From Dictyostelium discoideum (lineage: Eukaryota): 64,000 nucleotides of DNA. The notes under the pieces are model-generated. The model was not told the origin of the DNA. It saw nothing but the letters and a program-made list of their open reading frames with translations, and did not search any database. The stretch is taken from contig CM000150.2 of the NCBI GenBank assembly GCA_000004695.1, positions 3,776,001-3,840,000 of the forward strand, in the 5' to 3' direction. The position numbers were made by a program, and so were the translations under genes. Shown piece after piece: positions 12,611-24,493 of the stretch. How positions within the stretch are numbered: position 1 is the stretch's first letter; each line of letters opens with the position of its first letter.

Positions 12611-12646
<36 letters not shown>

Positions 12647-13004
12647 TTTTATTACCTTTTTTTTTTTTTCTATTTTTTTTTTTTTTTGTTTTATTACCTT
12701 TTTTTTTTTTTCTATTTTTTTTTTTTTTTCTATTTTTATTAATCAATTCCTATTTTTATTTATTTTTTAACACGCAGTTTCTTTCGGTTGGATTTTTTTT
12801 TTTTTTTAAAAAAAAATAAAAATAAAAAAAAAACCAAAATAAAAAAAAAAGAAATCAAAAAAAATATTCACCACATTTTCACCACCACGCCCATAACACT
12901 TATAATAGTTTTGTAGTAATACATTGAATAACTTTTATTCTTTTTTTTAATTTTTTTTTTTTTTAATTTTTTAATTTTTTTATTTATTTATTTTTAATAT
13001 AAAA

Positions 13005-13143
13005 ATGGTAAACACAAGAGATTTTCTTCCTAAAACCACACATTACTTAAAAGTTCCGATTATTGGTTTAAATGCAATTCTCTGGGTAAGTTTATATTAA
13101 TTTATATTAAAATAAAATAAAAATAAATACTAATACTTTTTCA

Positions 13144-13219
<76 letters not shown>

Positions 13220-14079
13220 TTTTAATTATTTATTATAATTATTTATAGTTACTTGGGTAAATTTTATATTTTTTGATAGATTTTTTTTTTTTTTTTCAAT
13301 TAATTTATTATTAACTAAATTTTTAAATATATATATATATATATATATTTTTAATTTAGACTTGTTTTAATAGTTGTTGGATCAGTTTGTATAAGTTTTT
13401 TTTCAAATTTTAAAGAGTTTACCAAAGAATCAGGATATAAGAATGCATTATCGAATCTTACAACCAGTGCACCAACTGGTGTTTTAGTTATTGGTATATT
13501 TTTCATTTTATTAACACTTGTTGGTTGCTTTGTAGCATATAAAGAGAAATTGGTTGGTTTGGTTTTATATACAATGTTAATGCTAATTTTATTGGTTGTA
13601 TTAATTGGTATTGGTGGTAAAGCTTTAACATTAGATAAAGAGGATGCTGTATCTATTATTGGTACATCATGGGTACAAATTTCAAACTCTTTAAAGAATT
13701 CCACAATTACAAAATTGGAAGATTTTTTAGAATGTTGTTGTTGGTCCGAATCTTATTCCAATCAAACCTATAAAGACCTTTGTCCAAAAGATGATGATGG
13801 AAATATTAAATATGAAGATACCTATTGCGAAGGTATCTTTACTAAACAAGTTTCAAGTAAATTAGTTTTAGGTATTTATCATTCTATTTTTATTACTATT
13901 ATTGTGTTGAATATTTTTTTATTATTTTTTTTTTTGAAAATACTAATTTATTTAATATTTTAGTTGGTATTGCTGGTGTAGTTATTGGATGTATTGAATT
14001 TGTTGCAATGGCATTATCACTCTTTTTAATCATTCGTATTTGTCGTTCTCCACGTAGTAGAGCCTATGATCAATATTAA
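13005..14079 (+). CDS. tetraspanin paralog 1; predicted exons 13005..13085, 13249..13256 (8-nt micro-exon), 13360..13871, 13964..14079
   Basis: Exon 1 encodes MVNTRDFLPKTTHYLKVPIIGLNAILW|gtaagt. Frame-2 ORF 13550..13963 plus upstream open frame encode four TM segments and a large extracellular loop with ECCCW and CPKD cysteine motifs. The phase only closes if TTACTTGG (13249..13256, flanked by tatttatag| and |gtaaat) is included, which restores W-LLG-LVLIVVG as in the paralogs. The last exon encodes ...IAGVVIGCIEFVAMALSLFLIIRICRSPRSRAYDQY*. Confidence 0.65.
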
Positions 14080-14952
14080 TAAAAGTAAAACTATTTATTT
14101 TTCTATTTTACAAATTGTCATCTCCAATTTTTATGCTTGGTTGGTAAAAAAAAAAAAAAAAAATAAACAAAATAAAAAGTTATTGTAAACACAAAAAAAA
14201 AAAAAAACTAAAAAAAAAAAAAAAAAAAAAAAAAAAAGTGATTTCACCAGGGATTATTAGGAAAAATTTAATTTTAATTTTTATATTTTTTTTTTTGGGT
14301 TTACAATAACTTTTTAAAATAAATTCTTAGGTAATATATTTTTTTTTTTTATAATTATTAACATATGTTATCTTCTTTTTTATTTTTTATTTTTTAATTA
14401 TTTTCAATAGTGATGTTTATAAATAAACAAAGAAATAATGGGAAACTCTAACAAGCCTTTGAGTGATTAGATTTTCAATCATTTCCTCTTCCATAATCCA
14501 ATGTATTTATATATTAATATCTAAAATTGGAGCTTGGTTATTTAACCCACCTCTTCTATTAAAAATTATTTAAATAAAGTTAAAACTCATTAATTTTATT
14601 TTATTTTATTTTGAAAAAAAAAAAAAAAAAAAAAAAAAAAACATTACCCTGTCCTTGCATTTGTTTTAATTTTTAAAATAAATATAGAAGGGAATAAAAT
14701 ATTGTTATTATTATTAATTAAACTAAATAAATAATTAATTTTTTAGTTTCCAAAAAATTTATTTGTTTTTCAAATTTTTTTTTTTAAAAAAAAAAAAAAT
14801 AAAAATAAAAAAAAATAAAAATTAAAAGATAGGGATATTGATTTTTTTTCCTCTCAGTTGGTGTGGTGATATTAAATAATAAAATTCAATGTGTAGTAGA
14901 AAGAAAGATATTTTATATATTGTTAAAGAATGTAATTATAATTTATTTTGTT

Positions 14953-14992
<40 letters not shown>

Positions 14993-15041
14993 TAAATTGA
15001 TTTGTTGGAATTTGAAAAAAAGGAATTGAAAATAATACTAT

Positions 15042-16432
15042 CTAAATAATTTTAAATCTTTCAGGTCTGTAAATAATGGTTTGATAAACTAAAATTCTAA
15101 CTATGTAGTGTATTGTTAATTGTAAGATATCACCATCATCACTTGATATACTAAAATTTTGAGTTAGCATAAATAAAAGGTTATTTTTCAAAAATTTAAA
15201 ATCATCAAATTCCCTATTTAAATCCAATACATAGTTCCCTATTTGTATTTGAAAAGGAAGATATTTTTTGAGAGTTTTAAAGGGTTCTAAACACTTTTTA
15301 ACAAGCTCATCCTCCTCATTCATAGGCATTGTTTCTGGTATTTTTTTTGAAAACGCCAAACAGAAAAATTGACTTTCATAATTGAATGGGTTTTCCACAA
15401 AATTTACAATAAATTTTAAACCAAACTTTTTGAAACTATCAATTATTTCATCTGAATCGATTGCCTTTTTAAAATTTGAAAATGGGATTGAAGGTGTTTC
15501 ATTAAACCACGATGCTTTGAGTAGATTTTTAGATTTTGGTCTGAGGCTTTGATCATAATTTAGAGCCAGTTTTAATACATCTTGACATTCTTGAGTTAAA
15601 TTATTGGGGATTGGGGGCGAACGACTTTGATTATTTCTTTGACCTCTCCATGGATCACTGCCAACAATCATCTCTAAAACGGTACACCCAAAACTCCAAA
15701 TATCACATTTTCTACTAAAATTTGAATTGTCTTTTTCTAAAATCTCTGGGGGTGCCCACAATGGTGTCCCACAAGCAGTTCTGAAATTGGTGTCGTTATT
15801 GATTGCTTTATATGATAAACCAAAATCTCCTAATATTGGCTCACCATTATCACTCAAATATATATTACCACCTTTGATATCTCTATGAATAATTGGTGGT
15901 TTTAATGAATGTATATAAACAATTGCTTTTAATATCGATATTGAAATCATTCTTGCCTTTGATTCACTTAATGCTGATATTTTAACAGTATCTGCGATTG
16001 AACCTTTTTTATAAAAAGGTGTCGCGATGTAATAATAATCTTTATCTTTATGATATCCAATTATTTTTAAAATATTTGGGTGATTTATTGAATAAAGAAT
16101 ATTGATTTCATTTACAATCTATATTTTTTTATTTTAAAAAAAAAATCAAAAGGTTAATATTTTGATCATAAGATTCCAATATTATATATATCTTACCTTT
16201 TCTTCTTTTAATACTGAAACATTAATTTTTTTAATAGCAATAAATTCGTTTGGTTTTGCTTTATCTCTATACTTTCCAACAGTACTGAAACTTCCTCTTC
16301 CAATATCTTCAATATATTCAAATTGATTAGTATCAAAAACTGGTGCTTTTGTAAATAACTTATTGCATTCTGAAAAATTCTCTAAAGAAAGTTTAATAGC
16401 CATTTGGAGGTCTCTATCTTTGTCACTATAAA

Positions 16433-16496
<64 letters not shown>

Positions 16497-16819
16497 ATTA
16501 TTATTATTATTACTATTATTTAATTCAACTTCATTCTTTTTATAATTTGTTGAATCTGTTTTAATTCTCTTATTACTATTATGATGATTGCTGACAAAAT
16601 TATTATTTTTTAATTTTTTAAAAAGATTTTTAAAGGATAAACAATCATTAATCCAATTTGTAATAATATTGCGTTGTCGATAAATTCCAAATGATCACCT
16701 GTGATTTTATTTTGATTAAACTTTTCAATAATAGCTATACTGAAATTATTATTAGAAAGCCATTTACAAACAGAGTCAATGTCCCATTCTTCATAATTTT
16801 CACATAACACAAATGACAT
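15042..16819 (-). CDS. SAM-kinase family paralog 4 (minus strand): SAM domain + protein kinase + conserved C-terminal domain; exons ~16197..16819 and 15042..16118; apparent -1 frameshift between SAM and linker (possible pseudogene or sequence error)
   Basis: ORF 16610..16819(-) is a SAM domain (EEWDIDSVCKWLSNNNFSIAIIEKFNQNKITGDHLEFIDNAILLQIG). A second frame continues through the homologous ...DCLSFKNLFKKLKNNN... linker, poly-N and MAIK...IGRGSFSTVGKYRDKAKPNEFIAIKKINVSVLKEEK|gtaag (ORF 16182..16403). The acceptor atatag| sits before ATTGTAAATGAAATCAATATTCTTTATTCAATAAATCACCC at 16118, joining ORF 15042..15950 (HRDIKGGN, DFGLSYK, CTD ending ...ILVYQTIIYRPERFKII*). Confidence 0.6.
16438..16530. 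repeat. (ATT)n tract (poly-N coding on minus strand) in linker of kinase paralog 4
   Basis: An ATT trinucleotide run with two single-unit interruptions. It stays in phase with MAIK... downstream. Confidence 0.85.
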
Positions 16820-17619
16820 GTTATTTATGTAAGATTCAAACCTGCTTTGACATCAAACATTGATCCATGTTTTGTTGATAGATTAATATAACTAATAACA
16901 ATAGTATTATATAAAATGAAAATTATTAAAAAATAAAAATGGTGTTTTTATAAGAAAAAATTTGGATTGTAGTTAATTTTTTAAAAAAAAAAACACCAAA
17001 ATATCTCAACACAGACTTAAGATTTTAAGTATGTGTTGTGGTTTTTTTTTTTTTTAAATTTTGAAAATCTTGATATTTTATATCTTGTTTTTTAAAGAAA
17101 AAAAATGGTGTTTTTTAAAAAAAAAAAAAAAATGTAATTTTACCATCATCCCCAAAAAGCTTCTCTAATAATTTAATAAGTTCAGATAATGGTGTGGACA
17201 TTTGATGAGGATAATTATAATAATAAAATTAATTTTGAATAAATTAACTTTGAATTAAATAATTAGTGATTTATATTTTTGATAAAACAAAATATATATT
17301 ACTTGAAATTTAAAAAATTGAGTCATTCTGTTATTTTTTAAGTCAGTTTCTTAATATTTTAAGCTTAAAGATTTAATTATTTGTTTTCCCGCACCTAACC
17401 AATTTTTTTTTTTTTTTATTTGGATTTAATTTTTAATTTTTAAAAAGGTTTATTATGTACGCGTGATATACAGCAACTTCCAGAATTGGTCGATTGCTTC
17501 AATTCCTTGTAGATTGGTGATATTTTTGTTACAATTAAAAAGGACAAGAACAATGTGAAAACTTTTAATTATTTTTTTATTTTCTAAATTTGTTTTTTTT
17601 TTTTTTTTTTTTATTTATT

Positions 17620-17620
<1 letters not shown>

Positions 17621-17659
<39 letters not shown>

Positions 17660-17660
17660 T
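17621..17660. repeat. (CTTT)n microsatellite
   Basis: ctttctttctttctttctttctttctttctttcttt. Confidence 0.9.
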
Positions 17661-18024
17661 ATTTATTTATTTTTTTAAAAAATTAAGGTTGATGTGAAAA
17701 TATTGCAAAAAAAGATTCATAAAATGAGATAAATGATCACCCTCAATAAGATTGTTCACCAAATTGAAGCTAAAAAAATTGTTTATCCCACACCCACCCT
17801 ATTTTTTTTTTTTTTTTTTTTTTTTTTTTATTTGTAAAAAGTTGAATTAACAATTTAATCAAATGATATTTATTACTTATAAATATTGATGATACAAACT
17901 TATTCCAACTATGAATGATGATTGCTGAATTAAACTATTACTATATATATTAATTTGATGGATTTTGGTTACCCAATCATGTTTCCTGTATTTTACATTG
18001 ATTGCCAAAGGCTTTAGAACAAAA

Positions 18025-18137
18025 TTGAGTGTCGAAGCAGCCCAATATAACCTAGAATATCCATTTATTGAAGTTGAGTGTCGAAGCGGCCCAATGTAAC
18101 CGAGATAATCCATTTATCGAAGATGAGATTGAGGGTT
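18025..18137. repeat. 49-bp tandem repeat (2.3 copies), relatively GC-rich
   Basis: ttgagtgtcgaagcagcccaatataacctagaatatccatttattgaag and ttgagtgtcgaagcggcccaatgtaaccgagataatccatttatcgaag, followed by the partial copy atgagattgaggg. Confidence 0.8.
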
Positions 18138-18653
18138 TTTTTTTTTTTTTTTTTTAATTATTAAAAACAACTAAAACCATTTAACCAAAATAAATTAAAG
18201 ATATTCTTACAATAAAAAAAGGCAATATGAAACTTTTATATTATTTATTTCCTAAATTTGTTTTTTTTTTTTATTTTTTTTTATTTTTTTTTTTTTTTAT
18301 TTATTTATTTAAAGCTAAAAAAAGATTCAAATACTGAGACATTTCATATGACACAATAAGATTGTTTATCAATCTGAAGTTATAATCATTGTTTATGTGG
18401 TATATTGAACACCTATATAGTTTCATTTAATACATCCCAATATTGTATCTTCTTTTTTTTTTTTTTAAAGAGTACCCATTAATGATGATTGTTCAATTAA
18501 ACTATTACTATTATTATTATTACTATTATTCTACTTGAATATAATCTCTTTATCCATCATTTTGAAAAATAATATTATTATTTAATTGAAATTCATTTTA
18601 TTATAATTGTTTGTCTTAATTTTTTTTGTAAAAAATTGTTATTATTATTACTA

Positions 18654-18723
<70 letters not shown>

Positions 18724-19203
18724 ATTATATAATTGTTAATCATTGAGCACATATAGAAAAAATAAAAATAAAAATAAAAATAAAAATAAAAATAAAAATA
18801 AAAAAAATTATTTATCTAGTTTATTTTTTATTTTTTAATTTTTTAATTTTTTTTCTTTTTTTTTTTTTTTTTAAAAACTTTAAAGGCATTAAAAATCTGA
18901 GGTTACCTGTTAATAGATTCACATTTTGGTGCCAGACCAGCAATATTTAATTTAATTTTTTTAATTTAAATTTTTTTTTTTTATTTTATTTTTTTTTTTT
19001 TTTTTTATTTATTTTTTTTTTCACGAGAAAAAAAAAAAAAAAAAAAAATTAAAAATAAAAAATTAAATTGTTTTTTTTTTTCCAACACACACACATAACC
19101 AATCATACTATTGTTATAATATCTTTTTTTTTTTTTATAGTTCTATAAATAAACACACACATATAATTTTAAATTCTTTTTATAAACATATATTTTTAAA
19201 AAC

Positions 19204-20160
19204 ATGGTAGATACATCAAATCTTTTACCACAAACACCAAGACTTTTAAAAGTCCCATTAATTATTTTAAATATTATCCTTTGGGTATGTATTTTAATTT
19301 TTTTTTTTTTTTTTTTTTAAAACAAAAACTAAAAATAAAAAAAAAAAAAAAGATAATTGCAATATTAAAAAATAAATAAATAAATAAAAAAAATAAAATA
19401 AAAAAATATATTTTAATTAATAATATCTTAAAAAAAAAAAAAAAAAAATCTTTAGATTCTTGGTTTAGTTTTAGTTATTGTTGGTGGTATTTGTGTTAGC
19501 TTTTTATCAAATTTCAAAGATTTCACAAAAGCCAGTGATGCTAAATCAGCTCTTTCAAATCTTACAACCAGTATTCCAGCTGGTGTTTTAGTTATTGGTA
19601 TCCTCTTTGTAATTTTCACTGTTGTTGGTTGTTTCGTTGCGTAAGTATACCAATAATAATAAATTATTATTATTATTATTATTATTTATTTTTATTAACA
19701 TTTTATAAAATAATATAGTTACAAAGAGAAATTAGTTGGTTTAGTAATCTATTGTGCAGTAATGTTAATTTTATTAGTTATTTTAATTGGTGTTGGTGGT
19801 AAAGCTATAACATTACACAATGATGATATCATTAATGAAGTTGGTGGTGCTTGGGAACATGTTGCCAATGGTACAAAGAATAGCACCCTCACTCGTCTCG
19901 AAAATTTCTTAAAATGTTGTAAATGGTCAAACGTCTCAATAGACTCTTCAGATTTATGTCCAAAAGATGGTGATAAAATTAAATATGAAGGTCACTATTG
20001 TGGTGAAGCTTTAAGTGACCAATTCAGTTCAAAAATCTATGCTGTTGGTGCTGCTGGTTTAGCCATTGGTATCATTGAACTCGTTGCCATCCTTTTCTCA
20101 TTATTCTTAATTATTCGTATTTGTCGTTCACCAAGAACTCGTTCATATGATCAATATTAA
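19204..20160 (+). CDS. tetraspanin paralog 2; exons 19204..19284, 19456..19640, 19719..20160
   Basis: MVDTSNLLPQTPRLLKVPLIILNIILW|gtatgt; tttag|ILGLVLVIVGGICVSF...VGCFVA with donor GC|gtaagt at 19641; aatatag|T joins in phase to YKEKLVGLVIYCAVMLILLVILIGVGGK... (ORF 19762..20160 with KCCKW and CPKD motifs, TM4 and the ...RICRSPRTRSYDQY* tail). Confidence 0.75.
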
Positions 20161-20606
20161 ATAAATAAATAAAACAAAATAAATAAATAATAGTAATAAA
20201 ATCAAAAATTTAAAAATATCAACAAAATTAATTTTTTTTTTTTTTTTTTTTTCTAAAAATAGAAAAAAATAAATAAATAAAAAATTTAAAAAAATAAAAA
20301 AAAAATACAAATATGCATCAAAACTGTTTAATTCTCTTTTTTTTTTTTTTTTTATTTATTTTTTATGAGAACCAAAACCTTGTTTTTTGATTTTTTTTTT
20401 TTCAGCCTGTGGTTTCGATTTCTTTAAATAAACGTTTATTTTTTTTAATTTTTTTTTTTTTTTTTTTTAATTTTTTTTATTTTTTAATTTTTTTTTTTTA
20501 TTCACACTGTTTTTTTACATGTGAAACTATTGACCACAAATATTTAAAAAAAAAAAAAAAAAAATTAAAAACTATAATAAAATTGTAATATATATATAAA
20601 TAAAAT

Positions 20607-20891
20607 ATGGTAGAATATCTTCCTTCAACTCCACGTTATTTAAAAGGTATGATTATTATTATTTTATTTTTTTTGATTGTTTTTTTAATTGATTGTTTTT
20701 TTTTTTTTTTTTTTTTTTTTTAATCACCTTTTTCTATTTTATTCTACTAATTTAAGAAAAATTTTATAATTTACTAATTTATTCCAATTTATATATATAT
20801 GTATATATAAAGTTCCATTAATAATATTAAATGTCATTCTTTGGGTAAAGTTTTTCCTGTTTTTTTAACACCATCATACCAGGGGCAAAAA

Positions 20892-20930
<39 letters not shown>

Positions 20931-21645
20931 TTAAAGATTTTAATTTATGAATATAATAATAAATTTTATTATTATTAATTATTAATTATAAATTATTATT
21001 ATTATTATTATTATTATTATTTAGTTATTAGGATTAGTACTTGTTATTATTGGTGGAATTTGTGTTGGATTTTTTTCAAGATTTAAAGAGTTACAAGAAG
21101 TAGGAGGAGTTTCAGAATCAATAAAGAGTATATCGGTATCATTACCAGCTGGTGTATTAAGTATTGGTATATTCTTTATGGTATTAACAGTAGCAGGATG
21201 TATCGTAGCTTATAAAGAGAAAATGGTAGGATTGGTATTCTACACAATATTGATGTTGGTTTTATTAGTTGTTTTAATTGGTATTGGTGGTGAAGCATTA
21301 ACTTACCATAATGCTGATATCGGTATTGAAATCGAAGATAATTGGAAAAACATCTCATATTCAAATCAAAGTGTTGTAATTAAAAAATTGGAACAATTCT
21401 TTGAATGTTGTTGTTTTGATGAAAGTGATCTAAAATTAAATTGTACTGCATTATGTCCACAAGATGATCAAAAAAATATATTATATAATGGTACTTTTTG
21501 TTATGATGTAATATTTGGTGCTGTAAATTCGAAATTGTATTTAGTTGGTAGTGCTGGTGTTGCAATTGGTGTGATTGAATTGGTTTCATTAATGTTTGCT
21601 TTATTTTTAATTGTTAGATTATATAAATCAAATTCTTATAGATAA
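20607..21645 (+). CDS. tetraspanin paralog 3; exons 20607..20646, 20813..20844, 21025..21645
   Basis: ATG GTA GAA TAT CTT CCT TCA ACT CCA CGT TAT TTA AAA G|gtatga; ag|TT CCA TTA ATA ATA TTA AAT GTC ATT CTT TGG|gtaaag; ttatttag|TTA TTA GGA TTA GTA CTT GTT ATT ATT GGT GGA... continues into ORF 21178..21645 (ECCCF and CPQDD motifs, TM4). Confidence 0.7.
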
Positions 21646-21961: not shown

Positions 21962-24493
21962 ATGAATATAATTACAACATTAGGTAATAATAATAGTAAT
22001 AATAATAAAAATAATGATAAACCAATGTCATATGAAGAGATTGAAAAATGGACAATTGAAAAGATGGATAAAATGTTGGGAGTTGATTCAAAGGAGATGG
22101 CAAAATATGTACTTTCAATGGATACAAATTCAGAGATTGAAAATTATTTAGCAGATGTTTTAGGTAATACAAAAAAAGTTCAAACATTTATTGAACAATT
22201 AATTAAAAAAATTAATTCATTACCAAGAAGAGTTTCAACAATTAAAGTTTATAAACCACAATCAAATCAAATGAATAATATTAAAAATAAAAAAAATACA
22301 ACCACAACCACAACCACAACCACTACAACTACTACTAATAAACCAACAAAACAACAAATTAGATCATTTAAAGAGATTGAAATTGAAATGAAACCAGGTG
22401 AACCATGTGATTGTCAAGCAACAAGACATAAACTATTAACCAATTGTTTAAATTGTGGTAAAATTATGTGTGAACAAGATGCAGGGTTATCAAAGAAATG
22501 TAGTTTTTGTTCAACACCATTATTTACAAATCCAATTAATTTATCAACACAACAACAACAATTGGTTGAAAAAAATTTAACAAATGCAGTTGAATATAAA
22601 GATAGAATTTTAGGTTATCAAAATACTCATGCTAAACGTACAATGGTTTATGATGATCAAGAGGATTATTTCTCAAATTCTACAAACAAATGGTTAACTG
22701 AAGAGGAAAGAAAAAAAGTTTTACAACAAGAACAAGAATTTAAACAAAAACAAGAAGATTATAAAAAAACTACTAGAATTTCAATCGATTTTCAAGGTAG
22801 AAGAATTATTACTGCACCAATTGATAAAAAATTATTTGAATTTGAAAAATTATCATTTCAAGATAAAAATAAATCACAACAACAACAACAACAAGATGAA
22901 TATAAATCAATTCAAGATTTTAAAAGTAGAAATGCTGAAATTGATAATAATCTTGGTAAAGATGTTAAATATACAAATTCAAAACAAATTAATAATAATA
23001 ATAATAATGATGATGGTAATGATAATAAAAAGATATCGGATCAAAGTGGTAAAATTATATTAGGTAGTGGTGGTGATGATTTAATTACAAAACAATATTA
23101 TGGCGTTGAAGAAGATATTGTTGTTTTTAATTCAAAAGAAGTTTTATCAAATGTAAATCTAAAATATAGAGGTATTATGGAAGGTTTATGGTATGATCAT
23201 ACTGGTTCAATTAAAAAGAGATTACCAAATTTATCAATTTATAAAAATTATATTCAAAATTTAAAAGATAATTCTTGTAATTTCATTTCAATTTCACCAC
23301 AAAATTATAGTAATCAAGAATTTCAATTTATTGGTTTAAATAGTATTGAAAATTCAAATTCAAATAGTTTAATATTACCAAATCAAATTAAAGAATTTTT
23401 AAAACAATTAATTGATTTTACAAATAAAAAAGATTTAAATAATTCAAATAATTCTATTAAAATTAATATATCAATATTAATACCAAGAGAATTTGAATTT
23501 TCAAATGAAAATAATTTTAAATTGTTAAAGAGTATAATTGAAATGTATGTTATGGTTGGAATTAAATCATTTAGTTTAATATTACCAAGTGGTTGGAATG
23601 ATTCATTTACGTTACCAATTTGTGCACCAAATTCAACAAAGAGTGAAGTTAACAATTCAAAAACTTATTCACAAACCCAAACCGCTTTCTTGACTCAATT
23701 GTATAAACATTATAAAAACAATATCGAATTTATAATTTGTCCATCAATGTTTGAATTGAATTTATCTTCTGGTACACCACCACCATCACGTCAACAAATT
23801 GAATATTGGTTAGAGATTAATAAATCAACACCTCAATCTTATCCAATTCTATTCACAACTTTATCAGGTTCTTTACAAAATTCAACTTTATCAAAAATTA
23901 AAAATATTTTTGATAAAAGAGATTTAATTGTAATTGAAAAATATCCTTATAAAAATAAACAAGTTCAAGCTCAACAAAAATCAATCATTTTACCAATTCA
24001 ATGGGATCCATATCATTGTTCATTTGATGATTATAAATCATTTTTATGTGGTGTTTTAGCTTCACCGTTTGATTCAGAGTTTTATTTAGATGATTTAACA
24101 ACAATGATAACTTTATGTACAACTTTTATTCAATATTTGAAATCACCTTTCAATTATCAAAGTGAATTAAGTTTACGTGCTACACTTGTTAACTTTACTG
24201 ATGGTAATGAAGAGGTTGCTGATTGTTTAGCAAATTTAATTTTAGCACTTTCAAATGGTGTTTTCGATCAAATTAATTCAATAGTTTTAACAAATCAATT
24301 AGAAAGACAACAACAACAACAAACTGATAATATCATTAAAAAAGATTCAATTGATCCAAGAGATAGAATCTTTTTTGAAAATCTTATTAATTATTCAAAT
24401 TTAGTTTTAGATTGTTTCAATAATTTACCTCATGACCCATTATTTGATTATTTAAATTTAATTAAAAAAACTTTATTAAATTATTTAGATTAA
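21962..24493 (+). CDS. activating signal cointegrator-1 (ASC-1/TRIP4)-like protein: N-terminal ASC-1 region with C2HC5 zinc finger, then low-complexity linker and a C-terminal domain unrelated to ASCH
   Basis: A single 843-aa ORF. It carries the TRIP4-like N-terminus (EEIEKWTIEKMDKMLGVDSKEMAKYVLSM...FIEQLIKKI), a zf-C2HC5 motif (PCDCQATRHKLLTNCLNCGKIMCEQ...CSFCSTPL), and the conserved RTMVYDDQEDYFSNSTNKWLTEEERK and ISIDFQGRRII blocks. The ~300-aa C-terminal region is discussed in the findings. Confidence 0.7.
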   Translation: MNIITTLGNNNSNNNKNNDKPMSYEEIEKWTIEKMDKMLGVDSKEMAKYVLSMDTNSEIENYLADVLGNTKKVQTFIEQLIKKINSLPRRVSTIKVYKPQSNQMNNIKNKKNTTTTTTTTTTTTTNKPTKQQIRSFKEIEIEMKPGEPCDCQATRHKLLTNCLNCGKIMCEQDAGLSKKCSFCSTPLFTNPINLSTQQQQLVEKNLTNAVEYKDRILGYQNTHAKRTMVYDDQEDYFSNSTNKWLTEEERKKVLQQEQEFKQKQEDYKKTTRISIDFQGRRIITAPIDKKLFEFEKLSFQDKNKSQQQQQQDEYKSIQDFKSRNAEIDNNLGKDVKYTNSKQINNNNNNDDGNDNKKISDQSGKIILGSGGDDLITKQYYGVEEDIVVFNSKEVLSNVNLKYRGIMEGLWYDHTGSIKKRLPNLSIYKNYIQNLKDNSCNFISISPQNYSNQEFQFIGLNSIENSNSNSLILPNQIKEFLKQLIDFTNKKDLNNSNNSIKINISILIPREFEFSNENNFKLLKSIIEMYVMVGIKSFSLILPSGWNDSFTLPICAPNSTKSEVNNSKTYSQTQTAFLTQLYKHYKNNIEFIICPSMFELNLSSGTPPPSRQQIEYWLEINKSTPQSYPILFTTLSGSLQNSTLSKIKNIFDKRDLIVIEKYPYKNKQVQAQQKSIILPIQWDPYHCSFDDYKSFLCGVLASPFDSEFYLDDLTTMITLCTTFIQYLKSPFNYQSELSLRATLVNFTDGNEEVADCLANLILALSNGVFDQINSIVLTNQLERQQQQQTDNIIKKDSIDPRDRIFFENLINYSNLVLDCFNNLPHDPLFDYLNLIKKTLLNYLD

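Follow-up and report, generated by a model that had tools for sequence, protein, structure and literature searches.

The three tandem tetraspanin genes considered here, tspC, tspA and tspD of Dictyostelium discoideum AX4 chromosome 1, lie in a stretch of 64,000 nucleotides (nt) of contig CM000150.2 (GenBank assembly GCA_000004695.1, positions 3,776,001 to 3,840,000 of the forward strand; this whole stretch is called the window below, and positions are counted from its first letter). Albers et al. (2016; PMC5012570) have published the expression, localization, motifs and tspC knockout phenotype of these tetraspanins, which sit on the contractile vacuole, tspC aiding recovery from hypo-osmotic stress. 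The genes described there (tspC, DDB_G0270986; tspA, DDB_G0269110; tspD, DDB_G0270682) are the window genes themselves, and the published intron counts (3, 2 and 2), motifs (CCC, CCK and CCC) and neighbors all agree with the window; intron positions and their evolution are not discussed in that study, and an intron in the 3′ untranslated region (UTR) of tspC is not counted. The survey of tetraspanin introns by Garcia-Espana et al. (2009; PMC2650405), which covered TspA, TspB and TspD (XP_646376, XP_646364 and XP_646377), recognized ancestral phase-0 “introns 1 and 4 in Amoebozoa” and found that derived tetraspanin introns mostly break the reading frame and arise as paralogs diversify; it contained neither tspC nor other dictyostelids, and gain and loss within Dictyostelia could not be separated in it. 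Ma et al. (2015; PMC4683709), using one-to-one reciprocal best hits, counted 679 D. discoideum-unique introns in 7,503 ortholog pairs, or about 0.09 per pair; the tsp genes are absent from their tables. A report on the direction of intron change in these genes was not found in the literature.

The principal result of our analysis is that the three genes have one coding intron in common, and that their other coding introns, which differ from paralog to paralog, are most probably gains. In the reading that we prefer, with a probability of about 0.85, an ancestral one-intron gene was duplicated and the paralogs later gained private introns on the branch of the D. discoideum complex, once D. purpureum had diverged and before D. 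firmibasis split off. The evidence comes from 16 dictyostelid genes, mapped by placing annotated proteins exactly on their own DNA from homologous loci; the codon-level table consists of 15 genes and a second gene of A. subglobosum. Six intron positions exist in the family. One is universal (16/16 genes), in phase 0 after the conserved Trp of LNxILW, and each of the other five is private to a single paralog of the D. discoideum complex: two in tspC and one each in tspA, tspD and tspB. All five private introns are in phase 1 or 2. They are located at the boundary between the N-terminal tail and the first transmembrane segment (TM1), inside TM1 (two introns), at the boundary between TM2 and the intracellular loop, and at the boundary between the second extracellular loop (EC2) and TM4. 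In the codon-level alignment, none of the six sites contains an indel.

The direction of the change follows from homologs outside the complex. None of the five private introns occurs in the four D. purpureum paralogs, in P. violaceum, T. lacteum or C. fasciculata, or in either of two A. subglobosum genes; since these nine outside homologs carry the universal phase-0 intron only, the private introns are read as gains. At the site corresponding to the first intron of tspD, for example, the D. purpureum partner of tspD in the gene tree reads TTA AAA GTA CCT without interruption. Each of the five positions is therefore occupied in one clade and vacant at a gap-free homologous site in the outgroups, which is the same logic of gain, absence at the homologous site in every outgroup, that was applied by Ma et al. 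(2015; PMC4683709). By parsimony, five gains stand against at least 12 independent losses if all introns are taken to be ancestral. The original prediction, made from the letters of the window, spoke of recent intron gain or loss among young tandem duplicates. Its discordant positions and post-duplication turnover are borne out, and its proposal to polarize the change with other dictyostelids decides for gain and not loss; the word “recent” has to be given up, because the intron positions of tspA, tspC and tspD are the same in D. firmibasis. Every intron position of the three D. firmibasis genes agrees with D. discoideum, including that of the tspC micro-exon, which is TTACTCGG in D. firmibasis and TTACTTGG in D. 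discoideum, a synonymous change.

The gene models on which the comparison depends were rebuilt from sequence and then checked with exact protein-to-genome splice mapping. The spliced translations of genes 1, 2 and 3 match database entries in every residue (238 aa, TSPC_DICDI/XP_646374.2; 235 aa, TSPA_DICDI/XP_646376.1; and 230 aa, TSPD_DICDI/XP_646377.1), and the three gene coordinates and every junction in the original prediction proved correct. Thus, the phase-0 intron after the Trp is indeed the only one common to all three genes, and the splice map also reproduces the predicted extra introns: GG|A and TTA G|TT in tspC, GC|T in tspA, and a phase-1 intron within the N-terminal tail of tspD. 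The window is extremely AT-rich (G+C 11–38% per kilobase), and the seven coding introns of tspC, tspA and tspD, all GT..AG, have a G+C content of 4–12%. The features of the three genes are as follows.

12952..13004, + strand: tspC 5′ UTR, minimum extent (bases 1–53 of transcript L013, contiguous with the genome)
13005..13085, + strand: tspC coding exon 1, M1–W27 (splice map and transcript)
13086..13248, + strand: tspC intron 1, ancestral, phase 0, after the conserved Trp (position occupied in 16/16 genes)
13249..13256, + strand: tspC micro-exon TTACTTGG, 8 nt (in transcript L013, between exon 1 and exon 3 sequence)
13257..13359, + strand: tspC intron 2, probable private gain, phase 2, GG|A (homologous codon uninterrupted in the other 14 genes)
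13360..13871, + strand: tspC coding exon 3 (splice map and transcript)
13872..13963, + strand: tspC intron 3, probable private gain, phase 1, TTA G|TT, EC2/TM4 boundary (codon alignment; removed in the transcript)
13964..14079, + strand: tspC coding exon 4 with stop codon (splice map and transcript)
14140..14410, + strand: tspC 3′ UTR intron, GT..AG, 271 nt (L013 joins 14139 to 14411)
19204..19284, + strand: tspA coding exon 1 (splice map)
19285..19455, + strand: tspA intron 1, ancestral, phase 0 (splice map and codon alignment)
19456..19640, + strand: tspA coding exon 2 (splice map)
19641..19718, + strand: tspA intron 2, probable private gain, phase 2, GC|T, TM2/intracellular-loop boundary (only in D. 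discoideum and D. firmibasis tspA)
19719..20160, + strand: tspA coding exon 3 with stop codon (splice map)
20607..20646, + strand: tspD coding exon 1 (splice map)
20647..20812, + strand: tspD intron 1, probable private gain, phase 1, AAA G|TT (only in D. discoideum and D. firmibasis tspD)
20813..20844, + strand: tspD coding exon 2, 32 nt (splice map)
20845..21024, + strand: tspD intron 2, ancestral, phase 0 (splice map and codon alignment)
21025..21645, + strand: tspD coding exon 3 with stop codon (splice map)

The private intron of tspD thus lies 32 nt upstream of the ancestral one. No tetraspanin locus besides these three was found in the window. The fourth paralog, tspB, is outside it, about 20 genes from the cluster, and was mapped in another D. 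discoideum strain (locus L006, 5082–5335); it has the universal intron and, 19 nt downstream, a private phase-1 intron, leaving between them a 19-nt exon that is the second micro-exon of the family.

Evidence that the private introns are spliced differs in kind from gene to gene. For tspC it is a transcript, L013 (SRR24091722), an assembled sequence of 971 nt that holds the tspC coding sequence (CDS) with all three coding introns gone; it is identical to the model at 717/717 bases, the 8-nt micro-exon TTACTTGG included. The transcript check called for by the original prediction is therefore answered for tspC. The prediction was to fall if transcripts gave identical intron positions in the paralogs; L013 reproduces the discordant structure of tspC instead. 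For tspA and tspD it is the cDNAs of Albers et al. (2016; PMC5012570), who cloned and sequenced tspA, tspC and tspD, found them identical to the database entries, with 2, 3 and 2 introns, respectively, and whose statement thereby supports the tspA and tspD junctions. For tspB it is annotation. The private introns are also non-coding, because their lengths are not multiples of three (103 and 92 nt in tspC, 166 nt in tspD) or because a stop lies inside: retention of tspA intron 2 gives GCG TAA, an immediate stop, and retention of tspB intron 2 likewise ends in a stop (...TAT TAG). The tspC 3′ UTR intron begins 60 nt past the stop codon and is visible through L013 alone; the tspC UTRs of D. discoideum and D. 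firmibasis do not align. A search for literature on Dictyostelium micro-exons returned nothing relevant.

The age of the duplicates is a separate matter. In T. lacteum and C. fasciculata a single tetraspanin gene stands between rpl44 and TRIP4. D. discoideum tspB adjoins rpl44, and D. firmibasis tspD adjoins TRIP4 in the order lipocalin-tspC-tspA-tspD-TRIP4, with tspC-tspA-tspD ordered as in the window. From the single-gene synteny between rpl44 and TRIP4 we infer that the four paralogs derive from one ancestral one-intron gene. In a neighbor-joining (NJ) bootstrap tree, all genes of group 4 (the Dictyostelium lineage) form one clade (100%), within which tspD groups with D. purpureum Dp_21115 (97%) and tspC with Dp_39101 (72%); the duplications leading to tspD and tspC are therefore older than the divergence of D. 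discoideum from D. purpureum, for which Ma et al. (2015; PMC4683709) cite about 400 Myr, and the tree leaves tspA and tspB unplaced in this respect. The description of the genes as young tandem duplicates must consequently be withdrawn: tspC, tspA and tspD are 50–62% identical pairwise, and tspD and tspC pair with D. purpureum genes rather than with their own paralogs. The four D. purpureum paralogs are on four different scaffolds, whereas tspC, tspA and tspD of D. discoideum are clustered; having all kept intron 1, the D. purpureum genes are not retrocopies.

The course of events would then have been the following. An ancestor would have had one dictyostelid tetraspanin gene between rpl44 and TRIP4, with a single phase-0 intron after the TM1 Trp; duplication into tspA–D would have taken place in the Dictyostelium (group 4) lineage, in the case of tspD and tspC at least before D. 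purpureum separated; and later tspC would have gained two coding introns and tspA, tspD and tspB one each. Two observations on the comparison loci may be added here. In D. purpureum (locus L002), 7 kb without a called gene lie between the CoA-transferase and tetraspanin genes. In A. subglobosum, both tetraspanin genes (loci L010 and L014) are preceded by an SH3-domain gene and followed by an alpha/beta-hydrolase gene; rpl44 is directly upstream of the tetraspanin gene in L014, and small unannotated genes occupy that place in L010. This arrangement suggests a segmental duplication of the ancestral locus in which both copies have remained one-intron genes.

Several points weigh against the preferred reading. 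Between the D. discoideum complex and the outgroups beyond group 4, the sampling consists of D. purpureum alone, and the tree pairs tspA and tspB only weakly with individual D. purpureum genes (25–46% bootstrap, NJ only). For tspA intron 2 and tspD intron 1, the evidence of splicing is a published statement and not inspected reads, and the map of tspB, a gene outside the window, comes from another D. discoideum strain and does not extend to D. firmibasis. The strict criterion of intron gain of Logsdon et al. asks for a clear phylogeny together with an identified source; no source sequence was found for any of the new introns in the window and loci L001–L010, so the present case answers to half of it. 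Moreover, the genome-wide balance reported for D. discoideum by Ma et al. (2015; PMC4683709) is 441 losses to 40 putative gains.

That ratio of roughly 10:1 is an argument for differential loss, according to which the ancestor had all six introns and the extra ones were lost elsewhere, for example by recombination with reverse-transcribed mRNA. There is also a tendency for lost introns to be situated 3′ of those that are kept (Ma et al. 2015; PMC4683709), and the intron retained everywhere in this family is near the 5′ end. The account is nevertheless a very improbable one, as complete loss would have to occur independently in C. fasciculata, A. subglobosum, T. lacteum, P. violaceum and each of the four D. 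purpureum paralogs, together with a different partial loss in every D. discoideum paralog, at least 12 events against five, and no two paralogs have any private intron in common. The geometry is equally awkward: tspD intron 1 lies 5′ of the retained intron, and two other private introns are just 8 and 19 nt 3′ of it, so that a 3′-biased cDNA conversion would have to halt within a few bases. We give somewhat more credit to a scheme, still improbable, in which the five introns were gained after the duplications but before D. discoideum and D. purpureum diverged, and D. purpureum then lost them all. One species represents the D. purpureum side of the split, and 202 precise losses have been reported for it (Ma et al. 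2015; PMC4683709); the scheme needs five gains and four or five losses (9–10 events) in place of five gains, however, and intron 1 is kept in all four D. purpureum genes, which are therefore not processed copies.

Least credible of all is an annotation artefact, in which the private introns would come from wrong models and the real transcripts would have identical intron positions. Gene predictors can invent features such as an 8-nt micro-exon, and the tspA and tspD junctions are taken from published cDNAs rather than from reads examined here; yet the micro-exon junctions are found exactly in L013, the reading frames are broken without these introns, and the independent annotation of D. firmibasis gives the same structures. 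Gain on the D. discoideum-complex branch accordingly remains the reading that we adopt.

With regard to mechanism, each private intron has the appearance of very AT-rich DNA inserted precisely into an intact codon, with codons neither lost nor added. An exonic G precedes four of the five, and three of the five interrupt a Val codon at A G|T, like a proto-splice site. Intronization and intron sliding were ruled out by the intact colinear coding sequence at each site and by the unmoved intron 1. The likeliest route would be that AT-rich DNA was inserted de novo at G|N sites, in the form, for example, of filler added during the repair of a break or of a reverse-spliced intron. Such an insertion could have been tolerated and spliced at once, because the minimal splice signals of Dictyostelium (GTA...AG) are easily supplied by AT-rich DNA.

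Recent intron gains that can be traced to their origin involve introner-like elements, tandem duplication of AGGT, or break repair, in which case short repeats flank the new intron. The introns described here resemble such gains in being precise insertions at G|N junctions and differ from them in having no similarity to each other, to intron 1 or to any other part of the sequence searched, low-complexity matches aside. A BLAST search of all introns against the window and loci L001–L010 for a donor or introner returned self-matches, low-complexity matches and one orthologous pair, namely tspD intron 2 of D. discoideum and D. firmibasis (74–77% identity); within about 260 kb of sequence, no similarity among the new introns or to repeats points to an introner or transposon origin. 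The other orthologous introns of the two species no longer align, while the tspC CDS is about 91% identical. Lack of a recoverable source or insertion signature is expected, as most orthologous introns have already become unalignable. The original prediction had recommended looking for short direct repeats at the novel intron sites; no convincing target-site duplication was seen at these sites, and for the same reason the search is uninformative. The repeats TTTTAG at tspC intron 3 and AAAG at tspD intron 1 were rejected as target-site duplications since they overlap the 3′ splice consensus (TTTTAG is, besides, not conserved in D. firmibasis), and the ACTTG repeat around the micro-exon was rejected as part of the ancestral coding sequence CTT GGA CTT G. 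In Ma et al. (2015; PMC4683709), source sequences were likewise almost never found.

The positions of the gains call for some comment. Measured from the ancestral intron 1, three of the five lie at distances of 8, 19 and 32 nt and create exons of these lengths, a clustering with P ~0.007 under a uniform null, calculated post hoc. The family might be a local hot spot in which an existing intron seeds new ones, e.g., by the return of the excised neighbor intron to its own pre-mRNA and subsequent recombination of the cDNA, or else by local duplication of segments bearing splice sites; we regard this as unlikely, though the clustering is suggestive. In intron-poor genomes, introns are 5′-biased, which could explain the clustering near intron 1. 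It should be noted that the number of gains is itself high: the rate of Ma et al. (2015; PMC4683709) predicts about 0.36 unique introns in four tsp genes against the five observed (Poisson tail ~4e-5, a rough and post hoc figure). The neighboring CoA-transferase, lipocalin and TRIP4 genes keep the same number of introns between species, as judged from gene spans and product lengths; intron change is specific to the tetraspanin genes relative to these neighbors.

In relation to the tetraspanin survey of Garcia-Espana et al. (2009; PMC2650405), the universal post-Trp intron probably corresponds to their intron 1, and the five private introns, all in phase 1 or 2, behave as their derived introns do. 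The hot spot of new introns in animals is the small extracellular loop, where none of the five private introns is found (0/5). Genes, products and intron counts were already known at this locus, and what our analysis adds is small: the polarized gains, an expressed 8-nt micro-exon and a 3′ UTR intron. It is, in our opinion, a tidy but modest example of intron gain, consisting of a well-polarized small data set (five private coding introns on one branch, spread over four paralogs that are each about 700 nt long) that contributes several better-supported cases to the 40 putative D. discoideum gains of Ma et al. (2015; PMC4683709). It gives no access to the mechanism of gain, the events being old and the orthologous introns of the sister species mostly unalignable. 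Its practical use is as a marker set, with which denser sampling of group 4 could date the gains and might catch a younger one.

All three products match the Pfam tetraspanin profile, PF00335 (E 7e-29 to 5e-33), with scores of 101.5, 115.0 and 106.6 bits against a curated cut-off of 32.1, covering profile positions 1–223 of 225. A Kyte-Doolittle scan places hydrophobic blocks of TspC at approximately residues 14–49, 62–92, 91–123 and 193–229, with equivalents in TspA and TspD; by this hydropathy scan only, the four-TM layout is present, with a short loop 1, a tiny intracellular loop and a large loop 2. The common TM layout and the large-loop cysteine motifs CC(C/K)(W/F) and CP(K/Q)D, which the original prediction had noted, are seen in all three proteins. 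The canonical Cys-Cys-Gly motif is replaced by CCC in TspC and TspD and by CCK in TspA, the same variants as tabulated by Albers et al. (2016; PMC5012570), and the CC pair is invariant across the family alignment. At least two more cysteines occur in each large loop (Cys171 and Cys186 in TspC; Cys169 and Cys183 in TspA; Cys164, Cys168 and Cys183 in TspD). TspC and TspA have the tail RICRSPR(S/T)R(A/S)YDQY in common; a tail of this kind had been predicted for two of the paralogs as RICRSPR..Y..DQY, and the actual spacing is trivially different.

Besides the tetraspanin genes, two features were delimited in this part of the window.

15042..16819, − strand: remnant of a SAM-domain protein kinase gene (samkB) between tspC and tspA, possibly extending to about 17210
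17540..18530, no strand: duplicated non-coding block, 17540–17960 versus 18205–18530, 75% column identity with indels

The original prediction had the tetraspanin genes flanking an inverted kinase paralog and a duplicated non-coding block, and both do lie between tspC and tspA. The open reading frames (ORFs) of samkB match Pkinase (E 1.6e-31) and SAM_2 (E 4.6e-05), and a stop stands between the SAM ORF and those of the kinase. Albers et al. (2016; PMC5012570) list as neighbors lipocalin, a samkB pseudogene and, for tspA, the adjoining tspD, naming the neighbor of tspC “pseudogene samkB, DDB_G0270988”; in another D. discoideum strain (locus L011) a gene of 541 aa is called at the samkB place. 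The spacer between tspC and tspA is 5.1 kb in the window versus 1.6 kb, without a called gene, in D. firmibasis. The duplicated block, about 400 nt long with copies about 650 nt apart, comprises repeat families D6, D15, D18 and D20. Between its copies is a tandem 49-nt pair (18022–18119), 86% identical, whose G+C content is unusually high for the intergenic DNA here.

Long (ATT)n/(AAT)n microsatellites occur at 13147–13219 in tspC intron 1, at 16430–16500 in the kinase remnant and at 18650–18725 in the spacer. Just upstream of the tspC promoter region, at 12640–12740, a T-rich unit, gttttattacc t(n) ctattttt, is present twice in tandem. At the other end of the cluster, the gene that follows tspD begins at 21964 on the + strand; the gene order in D. 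firmibasis, T. lacteum and C. fasciculata predicts that it is the TRIP4/ASC-1 homolog.

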